From a virus (taxonomy: Duplodnaviria > Heunggongvirae > Uroviricota > Caudoviricetes): DNA of 64,000 nt. The position numbers and the translations under genes are program-made. Location: the IMG/VR virus record IMGVR_UViG_3300045988_151230; one strand, given 5' to 3'. Below are positions 46,940-51,347 of the stretch, one piece after another; position 1 is the stretch's first letter; each line of letters begins with the position of its first letter. The notes beneath the pieces were generated by a model. The model saw only the letters and a program-made list of their open reading frames with translations, had not been told where the DNA came from and did no database searches.

Positions 46940-47326
46940 ATGTCTGACAACAAGATTGAATTTATAGAAAGTCGCTATGCTGCTTTTATCGCAGGGCTGA
47001 TTGAATCCTCACCTATGAGTCAGGCCCAAATAGCCAGACTTATTGGTTATAAAAATGCCAACAACCTTTCTTTAATTAAAAGTGGCAAAATTCCTTTGCC
47101 TATCGATAAGGTTCGTCCGTTGGCGCTGGCGCTGGGTATTGAGCCAAGTCGTCTTATGATGATGGTGCTGGAAGAACGCCAACCTGAACTCGCAGCATTT
47201 TTATACAAAGAAGGCACCGCTCCTCTTAACGAGGACGAAAAACAGGTTCTTGCTGCATATAACGAGCGATTCGGTAAAGAGAAAGGCGCATCACAAAAGG
47301 TTGTTGAGGCCATAAAGTCTCTATGA
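46940..47326 (+). CDS. helix-turn-helix DNA-binding protein, candidate regulator
   Basis: MSQAQIARLIGYKNANNLSLIKSG helix-turn-helix-like segment; candidate promoter TTTACA-16 bp-TAATAT with a GGTAAGcacTTACC palindrome upstream. Confidence 0.5.
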   Translation: MSDNKIEFIESRYAAFIAGLIESSPMSQAQIARLIGYKNANNLSLIKSGKIPLPIDKVRPLALALGIEPSRLMMMVLEERQPELAAFLYKEGTAPLNEDEKQVLAAYNERFGKEKGASQKVVEAIKSL

Positions 47327-48424
47327 AAAATTTACACGAATAAGCTCTGTTGATAGACGATCTCCCTTGAATTTGTGGTCAATTTCGTCTAAATCCGGTT
47401 GCTCTACGATTGATGCGATGTACGTCGAGAAACTTTCTAAGGCGTCTCGCATCTCGTCCATATAATCGTGCCGGTCGTAGACTCGATCTATCCCCTCAAG
47501 ACTGTGGTTCATGATTTTGCGTGATACCTCCTGGCTTATGCCTAATGCTGGGAAGTAACTACGCGCAGTACGGCGCAAGTCTCGGGGTGTAAATGGCTCA
47601 AGCTCCATCAGTTCTGGTCGTTCCAGGATACGACGTAATGCCTGGGCTATTGCCACTTTAGACATAGGAAGGTCTTTCCCGATTTTTTTATTCGAAGGCA
47701 CGAGCCACTGGCTGCCTTTACCGTATTCGAACAACTCTTCAATACATGTGCGCATTAATGTGCTTAAAGGCAGCGAATGCTCACGGGCAGATTTGTTCCT
47801 CTTGCCTTGATTCCAAACCCCACGCTTAAGATTGAACTCACTTTTTTTAGCCCGCAGTACTTCGTCAGGTCGTCTTGCGGATACAAGACACAGCCTGGCC
47901 GCCCATTTTGTACCAGCGCACACATTGAAGTAGTCCCATATATTCCAGAACACCCATACCTCTGCGTCGGTCAGCTTCCGCTCGCGAGGTGTGGGCTTTG
48001 CGCCACCGGCAACTTTGTTTAGTGACATATCGTTTAACGGTGACACGTCTATCATCCCCTGGAAGGCGCACCAGCTAAGGAACTGCTTCATCAGAGAGAA
48101 AACGCGGCGGCCCATAACAATTTTGCCATCCAGTATTAGTGGGTTGACCAGTTGGTTCACCATGAACCTATTAATGTCACTTACTTTTACATCGGCAATG
48201 TGCGGCAAAACATGTATCAAAATACAATGAACAGCGATCTCTGGCCGACGTCTTGTTATCAGCAGAGATAAGCGAGTGAATAACATGAATGCGTCCGAGA
48301 ATCTCATGTCATTGCTGACCTGCGAGATCATAACGGCCTGCATTTGAGATGCTCTTTCGAGATACTCAATCGCCTCTTTTGAGGTGTTCTCCGCAGCGCG
48401 TGCTCTGTCAAAGCTATTTTTCAT
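47321..48424 (-). CDS. tyrosine site-specific recombinase / integrase
   Basis: C-terminal catalytic region with R (LRRTARS), H (MNHS) and Y (YDRHDY). Confidence 0.8.
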   Translation of the reverse strand: MKNSFDRARAAENTSKEAIEYLERASQMQAVMISQVSNDMRFSDAFMLFTRLSLLITRRRPEIAVHCILIHVLPHIADVKVSDINRFMVNQLVNPLILDGKIVMGRRVFSLMKQFLSWCAFQGMIDVSPLNDMSLNKVAGGAKPTPRERKLTDAEVWVFWNIWDYFNVCAGTKWAARLCLVSARRPDEVLRAKKSEFNLKRGVWNQGKRNKSAREHSLPLSTLMRTCIEELFEYGKGSQWLVPSNKKIGKDLPMSKVAIAQALRRILERPELMELEPFTPRDLRRTARSYFPALGISQEVSRKIMNHSLEGIDRVYDRHDYMDEMRDALESFSTYIASIVEQPDLDEIDHKFKGDRLSTELIRVNFS

Positions 48425-48522: not shown

Positions 48523-48555
48523 AATGATTCCATACATAGTAGGTATGGAATCATT
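48523..48555. repeat. lox-like site: 13-bp perfect inverted arms AATGATTCCATAC / GTATGGAATCATT around a 7-bp spacer
   Basis: Same 13-7-13 geometry as a Cre/lox-type site, about 100 bp upstream of the recombinase; single arms recur at 51542 and 52555. Confidence 0.45.
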
Positions 48556-48634: not shown

Positions 48635-48883
48635 TCAGAGGGTGCTGACGTATGCAGCCAGTTCTGTGTATCCGCCAATCGGTTGGCCATTGATCAGTAC
48701 CTGGGGGATAGTCTCTACCGGTTTACCAACAATTTCACTAAGTTTTTCCTTGTCGATACCGGCAGTGGTGATGTCGATGTACTCATAATCACCGTAGCCA
48801 TGTCCCTTTAGTTGCTTCGCCAGCTCGACCGCACGTTTGCAGTATGAACAGTTATCTCGTCCGTAGATAACGACTTTCATCAC
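48635..48883 (-). CDS. glutaredoxin / NrdH-like redoxin
   Basis: 82 aa with the CSYC active site in VVIYGRDNCSYCKRA. Confidence 0.75.
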   Translation of the reverse strand: MMKVVIYGRDNCSYCKRAVELAKQLKGHGYGDYEYIDITTAGIDKEKLSEIVGKPVETIPQVLINGQPIGGYTELAAYVSTL

Positions 48884-49047
48884 TTCACCTCGTGCAACTG
48901 CTGTTCATTAACGATGATTGTGCCAATTTCGCAGTAGTGGATACATGGTTTTGACTTCAGTGCCTGATGAGCTGCGCGACGCGCCTGTTTACGTTTGTTT
49001 CCCATATTGAGTCCTTTTAAGTGAATAATGAAAGAACTATACCGACA

Positions 49048-49075
49048 AATAATAGGTAAGTCATTACCTATTATT
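49048..49075. repeat. AT-rich palindrome AATAATAGGTAA-gtca-TTACCTATTATT
   Basis: 12-bp perfect inverted arms in the intergenic region. Confidence 0.45.
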
Positions 49076-49117
49076 TGTGCATTATCCCTCTACATAGTAG
49101 AGGGATATCGTCATGAC

Positions 49118-49930
49118 TCACGGCAGTTTTGCTCTAATTTCGAGTAATTTCTGTGCCGTTATGCTGATTTCATACGCCAGATCTTGTGTTTGGTTAATGA
49201 TTCCGTAATAGCGCTCAACCTGATCAGGATAAAAACGTCTGATATGGGGGATATCGATATAATCATAATACCCAAGCCCTCCAGCAGAATGTTCTCTGAA
49301 CAGCGCCCAAAAGTTGTTCACTTTCCCGACCAACTCCATACGGATTGTTTCTAAAACAACATCATTGAAGCTGTAAAAGGGGTTATGGGCAATATTATCA
49401 AATGCGTAGAGAGGGTCGGTAATGTCGGTGCTAACTTTTGCCCGGAACTGTTCGCTCTTCAGCATTTGGAGGTAGTTGTAATTAAAAATATCAGTAATGG
49501 CTTTTAAAACACCGACGTCTCTTTCTGAGTAATTGTTCTGACTCACCTGGTGCGTCATCTGTAGCAGAAGAGATTGTTGAGTTTCGGCCAGCTGCTTCCA
49601 GTTTTTCAATTGCTCAACGGAATAGATAGTGTAGTCAGAGTCAATGAGTGCGCCATGTGAACGACACATCCATATACCGTTATCAATCGAGCTTCGCTGT
49701 TCTGGGGTTAAGCTAGGATCATATCTCGGTCCACCTGGCGCTGCTGCTGTAATATGTGCCGCAATACCATTATTAATCCTGCTGTTTGTATCACTGCTAT
49801 CTGGACCTACAGTTGTCTGGTTGCAGCCAGGATAAGAGCACTTCCAGCCTACGCGTTCGGCTAGTGTTCGCTTCACCGATGGGGAAAAATCATCTCTGTT
49901 ACTCACATTTAACCTCGCAGTGTTAAACAA
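49118..49930 (-). CDS. HNH-motif nuclease-domain protein with a C-terminal domain of unknown function
   Basis: GWKCSYPGC ... AAHITAAAPGG ... NGIWMCRSH pattern. Confidence 0.5.
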   Translation of the reverse strand: MFNTARLNVSNRDDFSPSVKRTLAERVGWKCSYPGCNQTTVGPDSSDTNSRINNGIAAHITAAAPGGPRYDPSLTPEQRSSIDNGIWMCRSHGALIDSDYTIYSVEQLKNWKQLAETQQSLLLQMTHQVSQNNYSERDVGVLKAITDIFNYNYLQMLKSEQFRAKVSTDITDPLYAFDNIAHNPFYSFNDVVLETIRMELVGKVNNFWALFREHSAGGLGYYDYIDIPHIRRFYPDQVERYYGIINQTQDLAYEISITAQKLLEIRAKLP

Positions 49931-49937
49931 TCTATGG

Positions 49938-50492
49938 CTATTTGCGTTTGTCTTCTTTCAAGCGTGAAACTTTAATCATCTTATCGGTGATAGAAAGCAA
50001 TGTTACACCCTCTTTTTCGTTCACAAAGCCTGCACCGTTAATCACCATTACTAAACGATCCTTCCCTCGATAGACTTCATAATACTTGCCTGCACCACAG
50101 GTCTTTGTCTCAATACAGTCCATACCTGAGATAGCTTCTTGGTCGAAAATTCTGTCTTTCGTTGCTACCGGTTTTCCGTACTCCCTTGTCATCATTTCAC
50201 CGATCTGCATGAACGTATACTTACCGACATTTGTCGTTAAAGACGATTCAACCTTTCCATCAATGAGATTTCCATGCGTATGTGGTTCCTGTTCATTCGG
50301 TGCATTTTTATCTTGAAGAGCGAATACCTCAATACTGGGTGTTTGCTCTTGGAACTGGGCTTTATAGTTCTGTGCAAGATCGCTTTTATCTCTACCTATT
50401 AAGGTAATTTTGTCGATCTCCGATTCGTTACATCCCGTCAGAGCGAGCATGATTACCAGAGAGGCAAGAATATTGAGGTTGCGCTTATTCAT
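49938..50492 (-). CDS. lipoprotein
   Basis: Signal peptide MNKRNLNILASLVIMLALTGC with lipobox; start taken at the internal Met. Confidence 0.5.
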   Translation of the reverse strand: MNKRNLNILASLVIMLALTGCNESEIDKITLIGRDKSDLAQNYKAQFQEQTPSIEVFALQDKNAPNEQEPHTHGNLIDGKVESSLTTNVGKYTFMQIGEMMTREYGKPVATKDRIFDQEAISGMDCIETKTCGAGKYYEVYRGKDRLVMVINGAGFVNEKEGVTLLSITDKMIKVSRLKEDKRK

Positions 50493-50796
50493 TGGCTTAT
50501 CTCCATGTTTTTCTGCCACATCCTGTCACCCACATGCAGGCAGTCTAATGCTGCCGTTGCTAAATGAAGACCCAAAAGTGGTAAAACCATACCTGGAAAT
50601 ATTCTGGAGTCAACCCAGTAAAAAAGGGGCCGAAGCCCCTTTGAATTTTGCGCTGAAAAAAGTGTTGCTAGGATGTTAGCAAGCTATGGTTAAGAACGTC
50701 TGCCGTAATTGTCTATCACAGCGTTGAGCGGTCTGGTTTATGTTAGCGGAGTCTTAATCTGGGTGATTAAAAGGCCAAACCGCTCAACGCTGTGTC

Positions 50797-50883
50797 TGGC
50801 GGAGAGTAATGGAATCGAACCATCATCGCTTGCGCAATGGGACGGTTTTCAAGACCGCTTGAGCACCATGCTCCCTACTCTCC
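50797..50883 (-). tRNA. tRNA-Ser (anticodon UGA), class II with long variable arm
   Basis: GGAGAGT/ACTCTCC acceptor stem, anticodon loop CTTGAAA, T-loop TTCGATT, encoded CCA. Confidence 0.8.
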
Positions 50884-51100: not shown

Positions 51101-51176
51101 TGGTGCCGGTTAACGGACTCGAACCGCTGACATCCTGCTTACAAGGCAGGCGCTCTACCAACTGAGCTAAACCGGC
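51101..51176 (-). tRNA. tRNA-Thr (anticodon UGU)
   Basis: GCCGGTT/AACCGGC acceptor stem, D-arm GCTCAGTTGGTAGAGC, anticodon loop CTTGTAA, encoded CCA. Confidence 0.85.
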
Positions 51177-51180
51177 AATT

Positions 51181-51267
51181 TGGTGGGGAGTGATGGAGTC
51201 GAACCACCCGAGTCGCAATGACAGTAGATTTACAGTCTACACCGCTACCTCTACGGACTAACTCCCC
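51181..51267 (-). tRNA. tRNA-Tyr (anticodon GUA), class II
   Basis: GGGGAGT/ACTCCCC acceptor stem, anticodon loop CTGTAAA, long variable arm, T-loop TTCGACT, encoded CCA. Confidence 0.8.
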
Positions 51268-51272
51268 TAAAT

Positions 51273-51347
51273 TGGCGATGGTGGGTGGATTCGAACCACC
51301 GACCAGTTGGTTAACAGCCAACTGCTCTACCGCTGAGCTACACCATC
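51273..51347 (-). tRNA. tRNA-Asn (anticodon GUU)
   Basis: GATGGTG/CACCATC acceptor stem, anticodon loop CTGTTAA, T-arm GGTGGTTCGAATCCACC, encoded CCA. Confidence 0.85.

Follow-up and report, generated by a model that had tools for sequence, protein, structure and literature searches.

In fused toxin–antitoxin (TA) sensors of the CapRel type, a toxic N-terminal enzyme, a tRNA pyrophosphokinase, is checked by a small C-terminal domain that responds to a phage cue. In Cap5, an effector of the cyclic-oligonucleotide-based antiphage signalling system (CBASS), and in short prokaryotic Argonaute, HNH-associated (SPARHA) systems, the toxic part is an HNH nuclease of a type that cuts double-stranded DNA non-specifically and is active only after N-terminal helices dimerise and the dimers pair (PMC12738770). 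Here we analyse a gene for a 262-amino-acid (aa) protein with an HNH domain of this type, together with the lipoprotein gene beside it, in a stretch of viral DNA of 64,000 nucleotides (nt) from IMG/VR record IMGVR_UViG_3300045988_151230, referred to in its entirety as the window. The protein is probably a single-polypeptide immune or abortive-infection nuclease, composed of an HNH effector and a C-terminal sensor or regulator and carried as cargo by a phage-plasmid.

The region is 100% identical to a plasmid of Escherichia coli O169:H41 F6326-C1 and 99.8-99.9% identical to many ~110-kb plasmids of E. coli and Shigella, and it is collinear with Salmonella Typhi pHCM2 and with phages Cyrano and CMS-2020a; the window is therefore an SSU5/pHCM2-type phage-plasmid (E. 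coli). A preliminary description of the window had placed two open reading frames (ORFs) between the recombinase and redoxin genes on one side and the tRNA genes on the other. Both are there, on the minus strand, and both stand beyond chance, each matching one phage protein family of PHROGs over its full length. Their longest forms, which begin at 49930 and 50519, are probably too long at the 5' end: the likely starts are a GTG at 49906 and an ATG at 50492. The order given in that description, the HNH gene and then the lipoprotein gene, is reversed on the coding strand, where the HNH gene is downstream of the lipoprotein gene, in the same orientation and after a gap of 31 nt. The features on which the argument turns are as follows.

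49118-49906, minus strand: gene for the HNH and four-helix-bundle protein, 262 aa; GTG start (RefSeq start, WP_021520503.1), stop codon at 49118-49120
49553-49906, minus strand: Cap5/SPARHA-type HNH nuclease domain, residues 1-118, with an N-terminal helix (residues 9-18) and a long helix (residues 97-118)
49130-49525, minus strand: C-terminal four-helix-bundle-like domain, residues 128-259, a proposed sensor or regulatory module
49938-50492, minus strand: lipoprotein gene, 184 aa; ATG start, from the ORF and the RefSeq start

The start of the HNH protein at GTG 49906 is directly followed by the codons for invariant R4, D5 and F7; homologues begin 2-3 residues before these, and the shorter start used in PHROGs would remove all three. 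The product matches PHROG 21516 ('unknown function') over its full length (E = 4e-181), and the gene is under purifying selection across relatives (ratio of nonsynonymous to synonymous substitution rates, dN/dS, 0.15-0.23); both it and the lipoprotein gene are conserved in elements of Escherichia, Salmonella, Enterobacter, Citrobacter and Kluyvera. No functional name was obtained from Pfam, NCBIfam or PHROGs, the Pfam match to the HNH domain being marginal (HNH_2, E = 0.21), and a structure search of BFVD returned no match at E ≤ 0.001. PADLOC models match residues ~7-138, with PDC-M68A at 8e-25, CBASS HNH effectors at up to 8e-20, SduA at 6e-17 and SAVED-HNH at 8e-17. A profile of 41 full-length homologues matches, in the PDB, the SPARHA HNH-APAZ effector (9om4, 2e-18) and Cap5 structures (2e-12 to 5e-7), always within residues ~7-121. 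All strong matches to the domain in PADLOC and the PDB are effector nucleases of immune systems. The HNH motif residues C23, C28, H51, N76, C81 and H84 are invariant, and the domain displays the features of the Cap5/SPARHA subfamily of HNH (His-Me finger) nucleases: a beta-beta-alpha metal finger, catalytic His, structural Asn, metal-binding His and Cys/His zinc ligands, together with a helix (residues 9-18) equivalent to the oligomerisation helix of SPARHA and Cap5. By these predicted features, residues 1-118 are an intact Cap5/SPARHA-type HNH domain.

The second half of the protein had been described as an unassigned C-terminal domain of 170 aa; it is in fact shorter, at ~135-140 aa (residues 128-259), and is confidently predicted to be a four-helix bundle. 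It has no relative in Pfam, PADLOC (2023 models) or the PDB. A 143-position profile of the domain, searched against 1.84 billion representatives at E ≤ 1e-3, matched 148 proteins, and in their fusions the domain is C-terminal. The N-terminal partners include, besides Cap5-type HNH domains, other HNH families (PF01844 in 17 proteins; HNH_3, HNH_2 or HNH_5 in 13), several TIR domains (TIR_2 at 7e-18, TIR, the CAP12/Pycsar-type CAP12-PCTIR_TIR and ThsB_TIR), DUF4062, Mrr_cat (1e-9) and a Schlafen/AlbA_2 domain (SLFN_AlbA_2, 9e-11), as well as modules resembling LmuA, spbK, PDC-S60 and nucleases (REase-like) associated with prokaryotic Argonaute (pAgo). At least 44 proteins carry one or two N-terminal transmembrane (TM) helices instead, and many of these, at ~165 aa, consist of the helix and the domain alone. 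The HNH-linked and membrane-linked forms are homologous: hhalign of the HNH-family domain against 25 single-TM proteins gave 99% probability and E = 8e-18 over 126 columns, and both classes have in common the motif [DE]FG...P.[FY].F.D..LE.LR..L......F. Basic residues lie directly after the TM helix, from which, by the positive-inside rule, we infer that the domain is cytoplasmic in the TM proteins. PADLOC matches in the fusion proteins all fall on the N-terminal modules and none on the common C-terminal domain.

A single module thus occurs with at least eight kinds of effector, across phyla, and the effectors are swapped on it (three HNH types, TIRs, DUF4062, Mrr_cat, LmuA-like, SLFN_AlbA_2, TM). 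Sensor or regulatory domains of immune systems show this pattern, in which one small domain stays the same and the cell-killing effectors attached to it vary. Neither the literature nor the database models that we searched cover the C-terminal domain or the full architecture of HNH plus four-helix bundle.

Comparison with the closest described systems locates both the likeness and its limits. Cap5 (the CBASS HNH-SAVED effector; PDB 7rwk, 7rwm, 8fm1) has the same N-terminal HNH subfamily, with the N-terminal helix, the CxxxxC...AAH...N...CxxH pattern and the long following helix, and the same two-domain logic of effector followed by regulatory domain. The window protein differs in having a helical bundle of ~135 aa rather than SAVED as its C-terminal half, and in being encoded by a solitary gene: matches to Cap5 and SAVED-HNH models cover residues ~7-135 only, with no SAVED match in the C-terminal domain, and no CD-NTase gene lies within 6 kb of the HNH gene, nor is there a common neighbour in other contexts. 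The SPARHA HNH-APAZ effector is the best PDB sequence match to the HNH domain, and its published oligomerisation-dependent activation is a plausible model for the window protein (PMC12738770); the alignment to 9om4 stops at residue ~121, so that no APAZ region is present, and no neighbouring gene has the size of a short pAgo. PADLOC's best match, subunit A of the candidate system PDC-M68, likewise concerns the HNH domain (residues 14-138, aligned to positions 4-125 of a profile of 253); PADLOC lists PDC-M68 as a candidate system of several genes, the C-terminal halves are unlike, and the lipoprotein neighbour has no PADLOC match. The similarity to Shedu is of the same kind, residues 7-135 matching positions 10-132 of the 326 of the SduA model, and no Pfam DUF4263 match was found. 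Among phage proteins, ORF2 of the P2-EC46 Z-region and the 'lysogenic conversion protein' of Yersinia phage vB_YenM_31.17 (PHROG 34329) have the same N-terminal HNH type (39-54% identity over 100-174 residues) in proteins of 368 aa with another C-terminal region; ORF2 lies in a variable moron locus of P2-like prophages, and a full-length homologue of the window protein occupies the equivalent place in Rouxiella. To CapRel-type sensors the likeness is one of proposed logic only, with no relationship in sequence or fold, the effector here being a DNase. The window protein is outside Cap5, SPARHA, Shedu and PDC-M68, with which it has the HNH module alone in common, and our searches found neither a paper nor a model that describes its C-terminal domain; it therefore appears to be an immune effector of the HNH kind whose regulatory domain is new.

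Full-length homologues lie in varied genomic settings. The architecture is rare (full-length matches at ~10 of the 80 best loci among 185,579 species representatives) and patchily distributed, in Klebsiella, Rouxiella, Morganella, Shewanella, Photobacterium, Vibrio, Pseudomonas, Massilia, Dyella and clostridia. In Vibrio parahaemolyticus it is a one-gene cassette in an integron array, bounded by attC-like repeats of ~130 nt. Separately, a classical-HNH relative from the C-terminal domain family (P0279) lies amid co-oriented LysE and acetyltransferase genes, which may be a similar array. In Rouxiella the homologue sits in a P2-like prophage between the tail-fibre genes and the tail module, and the P2-EC46 'Z-region' (GenBank AJ512680) has a gene, annotated as one of lysogenic conversion, whose product combines the same HNH type with a different C-terminus. 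The Z/fun locus of P2 is one that we take to be a site for exclusion genes. The study of Rousset et al. was considered as support for the Rouxiella and P2-EC46 position and dropped, as it covers the P2 gpA-gpQ hotspot and not the Z region. The Klebsiella homologue adjoins the integrase of a small island, the one from Shewanella lies between an MvaI/BcnI restriction-modification (R-M) system and an AAA_21 ATPase gene with a 203-aa gene, and in Massilia a dCTP-deaminase defence gene (PADLOC 2.9e-167), with a confirmed deaminase domain, lies 1.1 kb away. In an integrative and conjugative element (ICE) of Pseudomonas aeruginosa the homologue is near SIR2 and HerA and is preceded, after a 2-nt gap, by a gene for a 98-aa helix-turn-helix (HTH) protein (locus L007, 7702-7998) that resembles R-M C proteins (6e-14) and CapH (6e-9), which suggests that transcription of a toxic gene is regulated in that lineage. 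In Clostridium perfringens and other Firmicutes the homologues are found at the margins of serine-recombinase or Tn916-like elements. When the immediate neighbours were compared with one another by all-against-all BLAST, no partner common to these contexts emerged; the gene therefore acts and travels on its own, as a solitary mobile unit. Our PADLOC scan of the neighbours comprised 87 genes, without a matched control, and some candidate neighbours were discarded on inspection: the gene upstream in Dyella encodes a MATE pump, a 'PtuA-sized' ORF in Firmicutes encodes a Tn916-type NlpC/P60 hydrolase, and the Firmicutes copies are preceded by a spurious-looking ORF of 135 aa.

Within the SSU5-like family the locus is accessory, in agreement with the earlier suggestion that it occupies a cargo position. 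The nearest backbone, pGMI17-003_2, is 99.4% identical to the window up to 48869 and 98.9% identical from 51080, lacks 48870-50619 and carries a 420-aa plus-strand gene in its place; phage Cyrano lacks both genes and has other content in the slot. In most E. coli relatives a plus-strand hypothetical gene of 395-431 aa, known in several alleles, replaces either the HNH gene or both genes (L011 3445-4740, L018 3815-5002, L019 3782-5002, L020 3723-4985). One of these alleles has a sub-threshold match to Pfam putAbiC (E = 8e-4), and SSU5-like elements may use this slot generally as a hotspot for defence or exclusion genes. A presence/absence comparison across relatives, as the preliminary description had proposed, places neither gene in the conserved core, and the pair are not, as the refuting case of that description would have had it, core genes with a replication or packaging role: with a family defined by a DNA-ligase query (798 related plasmids, 592 of them with ≥80% coverage), roughly 600-800 SSU5-like plasmids include 68-71 that have the HNH gene (~9-12%) and 85-108 that have the lipoprotein gene. 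Among 5,426 complete E. coli genomes the locus was found in 210, always plasmid-borne, and both genes in 20. The segment 48870-50619, between grxA and tRNA-Ser, is a variable accessory slot.

The fusion repertoire and the solitary cargo contexts are therefore the grounds on which we read the protein as a single-protein immune or abortive-infection nuclease. In such a scheme the N-terminal HNH domain would be the effector, cutting DNA non-specifically only once driven to oligomerise, as in its characterised relatives, and the C-terminal four-helix bundle would be the sensor or regulator, holding the nuclease off until an infection cue arrives. The cue, probably a phage protein or another cytoplasmic signal, would release or assemble the nuclease, a logic akin to that of fused TA sensors, and the element would thereby shield its lysogen from competing phages or other mobile elements. 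As a tentative extension, residues 128-259 could represent a previously unrecognised, widespread cytoplasmic sensor domain that senses an infection cue directly and activates whichever effector is fused to it, defining a new family of single-gene abortive-infection systems. The effectors so switched would be Cap5-type and classical HNH DNases, TIR NADases, Mrr- and LmuA-like nucleases, a Schlafen-like module and a membrane-disrupting TM helix, and the family would travel as integron cassettes, prophage morons and phage-plasmid cargo.

Several points weigh against reading the protein as a stand-alone immune nuclease. The matches of the C-terminal domain are generic helical bundles only, so the case for a sensor role comes entirely from the fusion patterns, and the domain could be a mere oligomerisation or targeting domain. 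The Glu that bridges the HNH dimers of SPARHA and Cap5 (E50 in MllaSPARHA) is not conserved, its place being taken by Ile48 (at H-3), so activation may differ from that of SPARHA and Cap5. Defence neighbours occur in only part of ~14 contexts, the other loci showing just housekeeping or ICE genes, and an apparent GajB among the neighbours was a false match to what is actually a Rep helicase. The promoter assigned to the locus (50586-50613) is a 9/12 consensus match only, of a kind that is less frequent here than in shuffled sequence. Our literature search found no paper that mentions proteins of this family, and searches on PDC-M68, the RefSeq accessions and HNH defence genes in integrons or P2 yielded nothing specific; no PADLOC model spans the full-length architecture of HNH plus four-helix bundle. 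Finally, every SSU5-like HNH-bearing locus inspected, even one with an HNH allele of 58% identity, has the lipoprotein gene directly upstream, and a functional link specific to this lineage is therefore still conceivable.

Other functions for the HNH protein can be envisioned. It might be another type of conflict toxin, a nuclease of plasmid addiction or of inter-element competition (anti-plasmid or anti-conjugation) rather than an anti-phage protein. The carriers are indeed plasmid-like and integrative elements, TA toxins such as YafO occur nearby in phage-plasmid relatives, and the related SPARHA effector acts on plasmids as well as phages (PMC12738770). We nevertheless consider this unlikely: there is no conserved adjacent antitoxin or immunity gene, which classical addiction requires, and the fusions (TIR, LmuA-like, ThsB-like, TM) and neighbours (R-M, dCTP deaminase, SIR2-HerA) are typical of anti-phage islands. 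In mechanism this alternative overlaps with an immune nuclease, the difference being mainly one of target. A role in the life cycle of the element, such as degradation of host DNA for nucleotides, replication or recombination, or terminase-associated packaging, would suit the position of the gene in a region of DNA and nucleotide metabolism (near phoH, grxA, ligase and primase genes, and in relatives directly beside phoH and grxA). It is distinctly unlikely for a gene that is as infrequent among SSU5-like plasmids as this one, is missing in Cyrano and the closest backbone relatives, has no packaging genes adjacent to it and has homologues in settings that are not phages (integron cassette, ICEs, chromosomal islands).

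The preliminary description had offered a homing endonuclease and a defence or abortive-infection effector side by side; the domain fusions and contexts favour the second, and the HNH subtype, fusion partners and contexts make the first highly improbable. A free-standing homing endonuclease that cuts HNH-less alleles and recognises its DNA target through the C-terminal domain would account for the presence/absence polymorphism among relatives and for a near-identical HNH gene in diverged backbones (98% versus 76-81%), and in BFVD the structure weakly resembles those of phage HNH homing enzymes (E ≥ 0.045). The HNH subtype, however, is that of the Cap5 and SPARHA effectors and not that of phage homing enzymes; no NUMOD, AP2 or HTH DNA-binding module was detected, and the C-terminal domain is common to TIR, DUF4062 and membrane-anchored proteins, which need no DNA target. 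Homologues occupy unrelated contexts (integron cassette, ICEs, a P2-like moron site) with no common flanking target gene, and the slot of HNH-less relatives holds other genes rather than a clean empty site.

If the protein is indeed an immune nuclease, it is one not yet listed, carried by SSU5/pHCM2-type phage-plasmids, and it could influence susceptibility to phages and the outcome of phage therapy; these elements are common in clinical E. coli, Salmonella Typhi, Enterobacter and Klebsiella. It would also offer a compact one-gene system (262 aa here, ~165 aa in the TM versions) for studying the sensing of infection and the activation of a Cap5-type HNH domain by a small helical domain. The breadth of effector swapping makes the protein a good test candidate, one of many such candidates that exist.

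The second gene encodes a lipoprotein, as the preliminary description had proposed. Two features mark its predicted export and lipidation.

50433-50492, minus strand: lipoprotein signal peptide
50430-50432, minus strand: codon of the lipid-attachment residue, Cys21

The start at ATG 50492, supported by RefSeq and by homologue alignments, gives a product of 184 aa with an N-terminal signal peptide and the lipobox MNKRNLNILASLVIMLALTG|CNESE (LTG|C, with cleavage after MNKRNLNILASLVIMLALTG), which conforms to the pattern [LVI][ASTVI][GAS]C; L18, T19, G20 and C21 are invariant in the family, as are Cys126 and Cys132, and the Pfam LPAM_1 match is weak (E = 0.077). By these signals the product is predicted to be a lipoprotein exported through Sec and signal peptidase II, with a mature form of 163 aa, and the Asn at position +2 after the lipidated Cys probably directs it to the outer membrane. 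It matches PHROG 15156 ('unknown function') end to end (E = 8e-114). No functional name came from Pfam, NCBIfam or PHROGs, no PADLOC model matched and no relative was found in the PDB; the AlphaFold model, from an alignment of 13 shallow sequences, is unusable (predicted local distance difference test score, pLDDT, 41.7). Single-sequence and profile searches returned only 16-17 close clusters, all enterobacterial, and the protein is, as far as these searches reach, an orphan family confined to enterobacterial phage-plasmids.

Its mature part is a hypervariable cassette flanked by conserved sequence. In a sliding comparison with Enterobacter asburiae pMB2617_2, identity is 53-78% across the mature lipoprotein (49940-50440) and 92-97% across the signal peptide and promoter; alleles are mosaic between at least two classes, and dN, at ~0.22, is 2-4 times that of backbone genes. 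Such hypervariability would suit a product that is exposed at the surface or determines specificity. T5 Llp, Cor and lambda Bor are phage-encoded lipoproteins of exclusion or lysogenic conversion. The window lipoprotein resembles them as a small moron lipoprotein borne by a prophage or plasmid, its mature part here being hypervariable, and differs in its larger size (a 184-aa product, 163 aa when mature) and in having no detectable sequence similarity to them, its relatives lying only in 17 enterobacterial clusters. A role at the cell surface, for example in superinfection exclusion, would be a guess by analogy. The IncY P1-like plasmid pTetA_020022 (L013, 3992-4546) carries a homologue with 67% aa identity beside unrelated genes, a copy which shows that this lipoprotein moron has apparently been exchanged between two phage-plasmid families.

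The two genes had been treated as a pair, and that view does not survive comparison: each occurs without the other, and their histories are discordant. The lipoprotein gene is found without the HNH gene in p20170902CC-1 and in the IncY P1-type plasmid, and in six independent settings examined outside the SSU5-like family homologues of the HNH protein have no lipoprotein neighbour. Identity between the window and pMB2617_2 is 98.1% in the HNH gene, 76-81% in the integrase, grxA and ligase genes and 68% in the lipoprotein gene; in the sliding comparison it is 97-100% over 48960-49917. We conclude that these are two independent morons and that the lipoprotein is not a partner of the HNH protein.

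The alternative, a single two-gene system in which the lipoprotein would be an envelope sensor or exclusion component and the HNH protein its cytoplasmic nuclease, we give very little credence. It draws on the co-orientation of the genes, the 31-nt gap, what is apparently one promoter with hairpins after the genes, and the constant upstream position of the lipoprotein gene in SSU5-like HNH loci. Against it stand, in addition to the solitary occurrences of each gene and the discordance between 98% and 68% identity in the same two elements, the greater number of plasmids with the lipoprotein gene (85-108 against 68-71), the lack of lipoprotein homologues beyond enterobacterial phage-plasmids and the different compartments of the products. 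Adjacency and co-transcription, in other words, need not mean a system, and the neighbouring lipoprotein is a separate hypervariable moron. A colicin-like operon of HNH toxin and lysis lipoprotein was rejected: the HNH domain is N-terminal, there are no translocation or receptor domains and no immunity gene, and the lipoprotein is large and upstream.

The surroundings of the two genes are composed of the following features; tRNA, lipoprotein, phoH remnant, grxA, integrase, HTH, ligase and primase genes are annotated within 6 kb.

47321-48424, minus strand: tyrosine recombinase gene
48635-48883, minus strand: grxA (GrxA, Pfam 3.8e-11)
48904-49005, minus strand: 5' remnant of phoH, a pseudogene by RefSeq annotation and homology map
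49039-49107, minus strand: two tandem strong hairpins directly 3' of the HNH stop codon, from folding; possible terminator or RNA-stabilising element
50586-50613, minus strand: predicted sigma-70-like promoter, TTGACT-16-TATGGT (9/12 in a consensus scan), upstream of the lipoprotein-HNH unit
50620-50642, minus strand: intrinsic terminator, GGGGC-UUCG-GCCCC followed by a U run, read in the sequence; ends the tRNA-Ser unit
50797-50883, minus strand: tRNA-Ser
51101-51347, minus strand: tRNA-Thr, tRNA-Tyr and tRNA-Asn, upstream of tRNA-Ser, in the minus-strand order Asn, Tyr, Thr

The terminator (-20.5 kcal/mol, z -3.7) is the boundary of the cargo on the backbone side, homology with cargo-less relatives resuming at 50620, and the predicted promoter lies within the variable segment, directly past the end of homology to 'empty' relatives. 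From this promoter of their own the lipoprotein and HNH genes are apparently transcribed together. The hairpins after the HNH gene fold at -34.5 kcal/mol (z -6.75), a stability reached by none of 200 shuffles; a simple terminator scan did not call them.

The arrangement in the window is derived from that of pHCM2-type relatives, in which phoH and two small genes are followed by the HNH and lipoprotein genes and, in some cases, by a 242-aa gene. phoH is intact beside the HNH gene in pHCM2 and in Enterobacter and Citrobacter plasmids; the lineage of the window has lost most of phoH, a small ORF and a Gp49-family gene, which in pHCM2-type relatives separate the HNH gene from grxA. The 242-aa gene, directly upstream of the lipoprotein gene in pHCM2 (L003, 6585-7313) and at equivalent places in L012 and L022, is missing from the window and has weak HEPN-like PADLOC matches (RTasHEPN 1.6e-4, AbiD 0.025). 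A second variable spot separates the recombinase gene from grxA: in Enterobacter and Citrobacter relatives it holds a YafO-family toxin gene with a partner gene (L012 405-1336, L021 2269-3297, L023 2365-3296), and in the window it is empty.

A palindrome of 13-bp arms and a 7-nt spacer, AATGATTCCATAC-ATAGTAG-GTATGGAATCATT, lies at 48523-48555, ~100 bp upstream of the tyrosine recombinase gene, and recurs in every SSU5-like locus that was compared. It resembles a lox/dif-type site, and the 'integrase' may accordingly be a recombinase for multimer resolution, by analogy with Cre-loxP of P1. Among the tRNA genes, that for tRNA-Tyr (51181-51267) is variable, being missing in phage Cyrano and pWP4-S18-ESBL-07_2 and found in other relatives.

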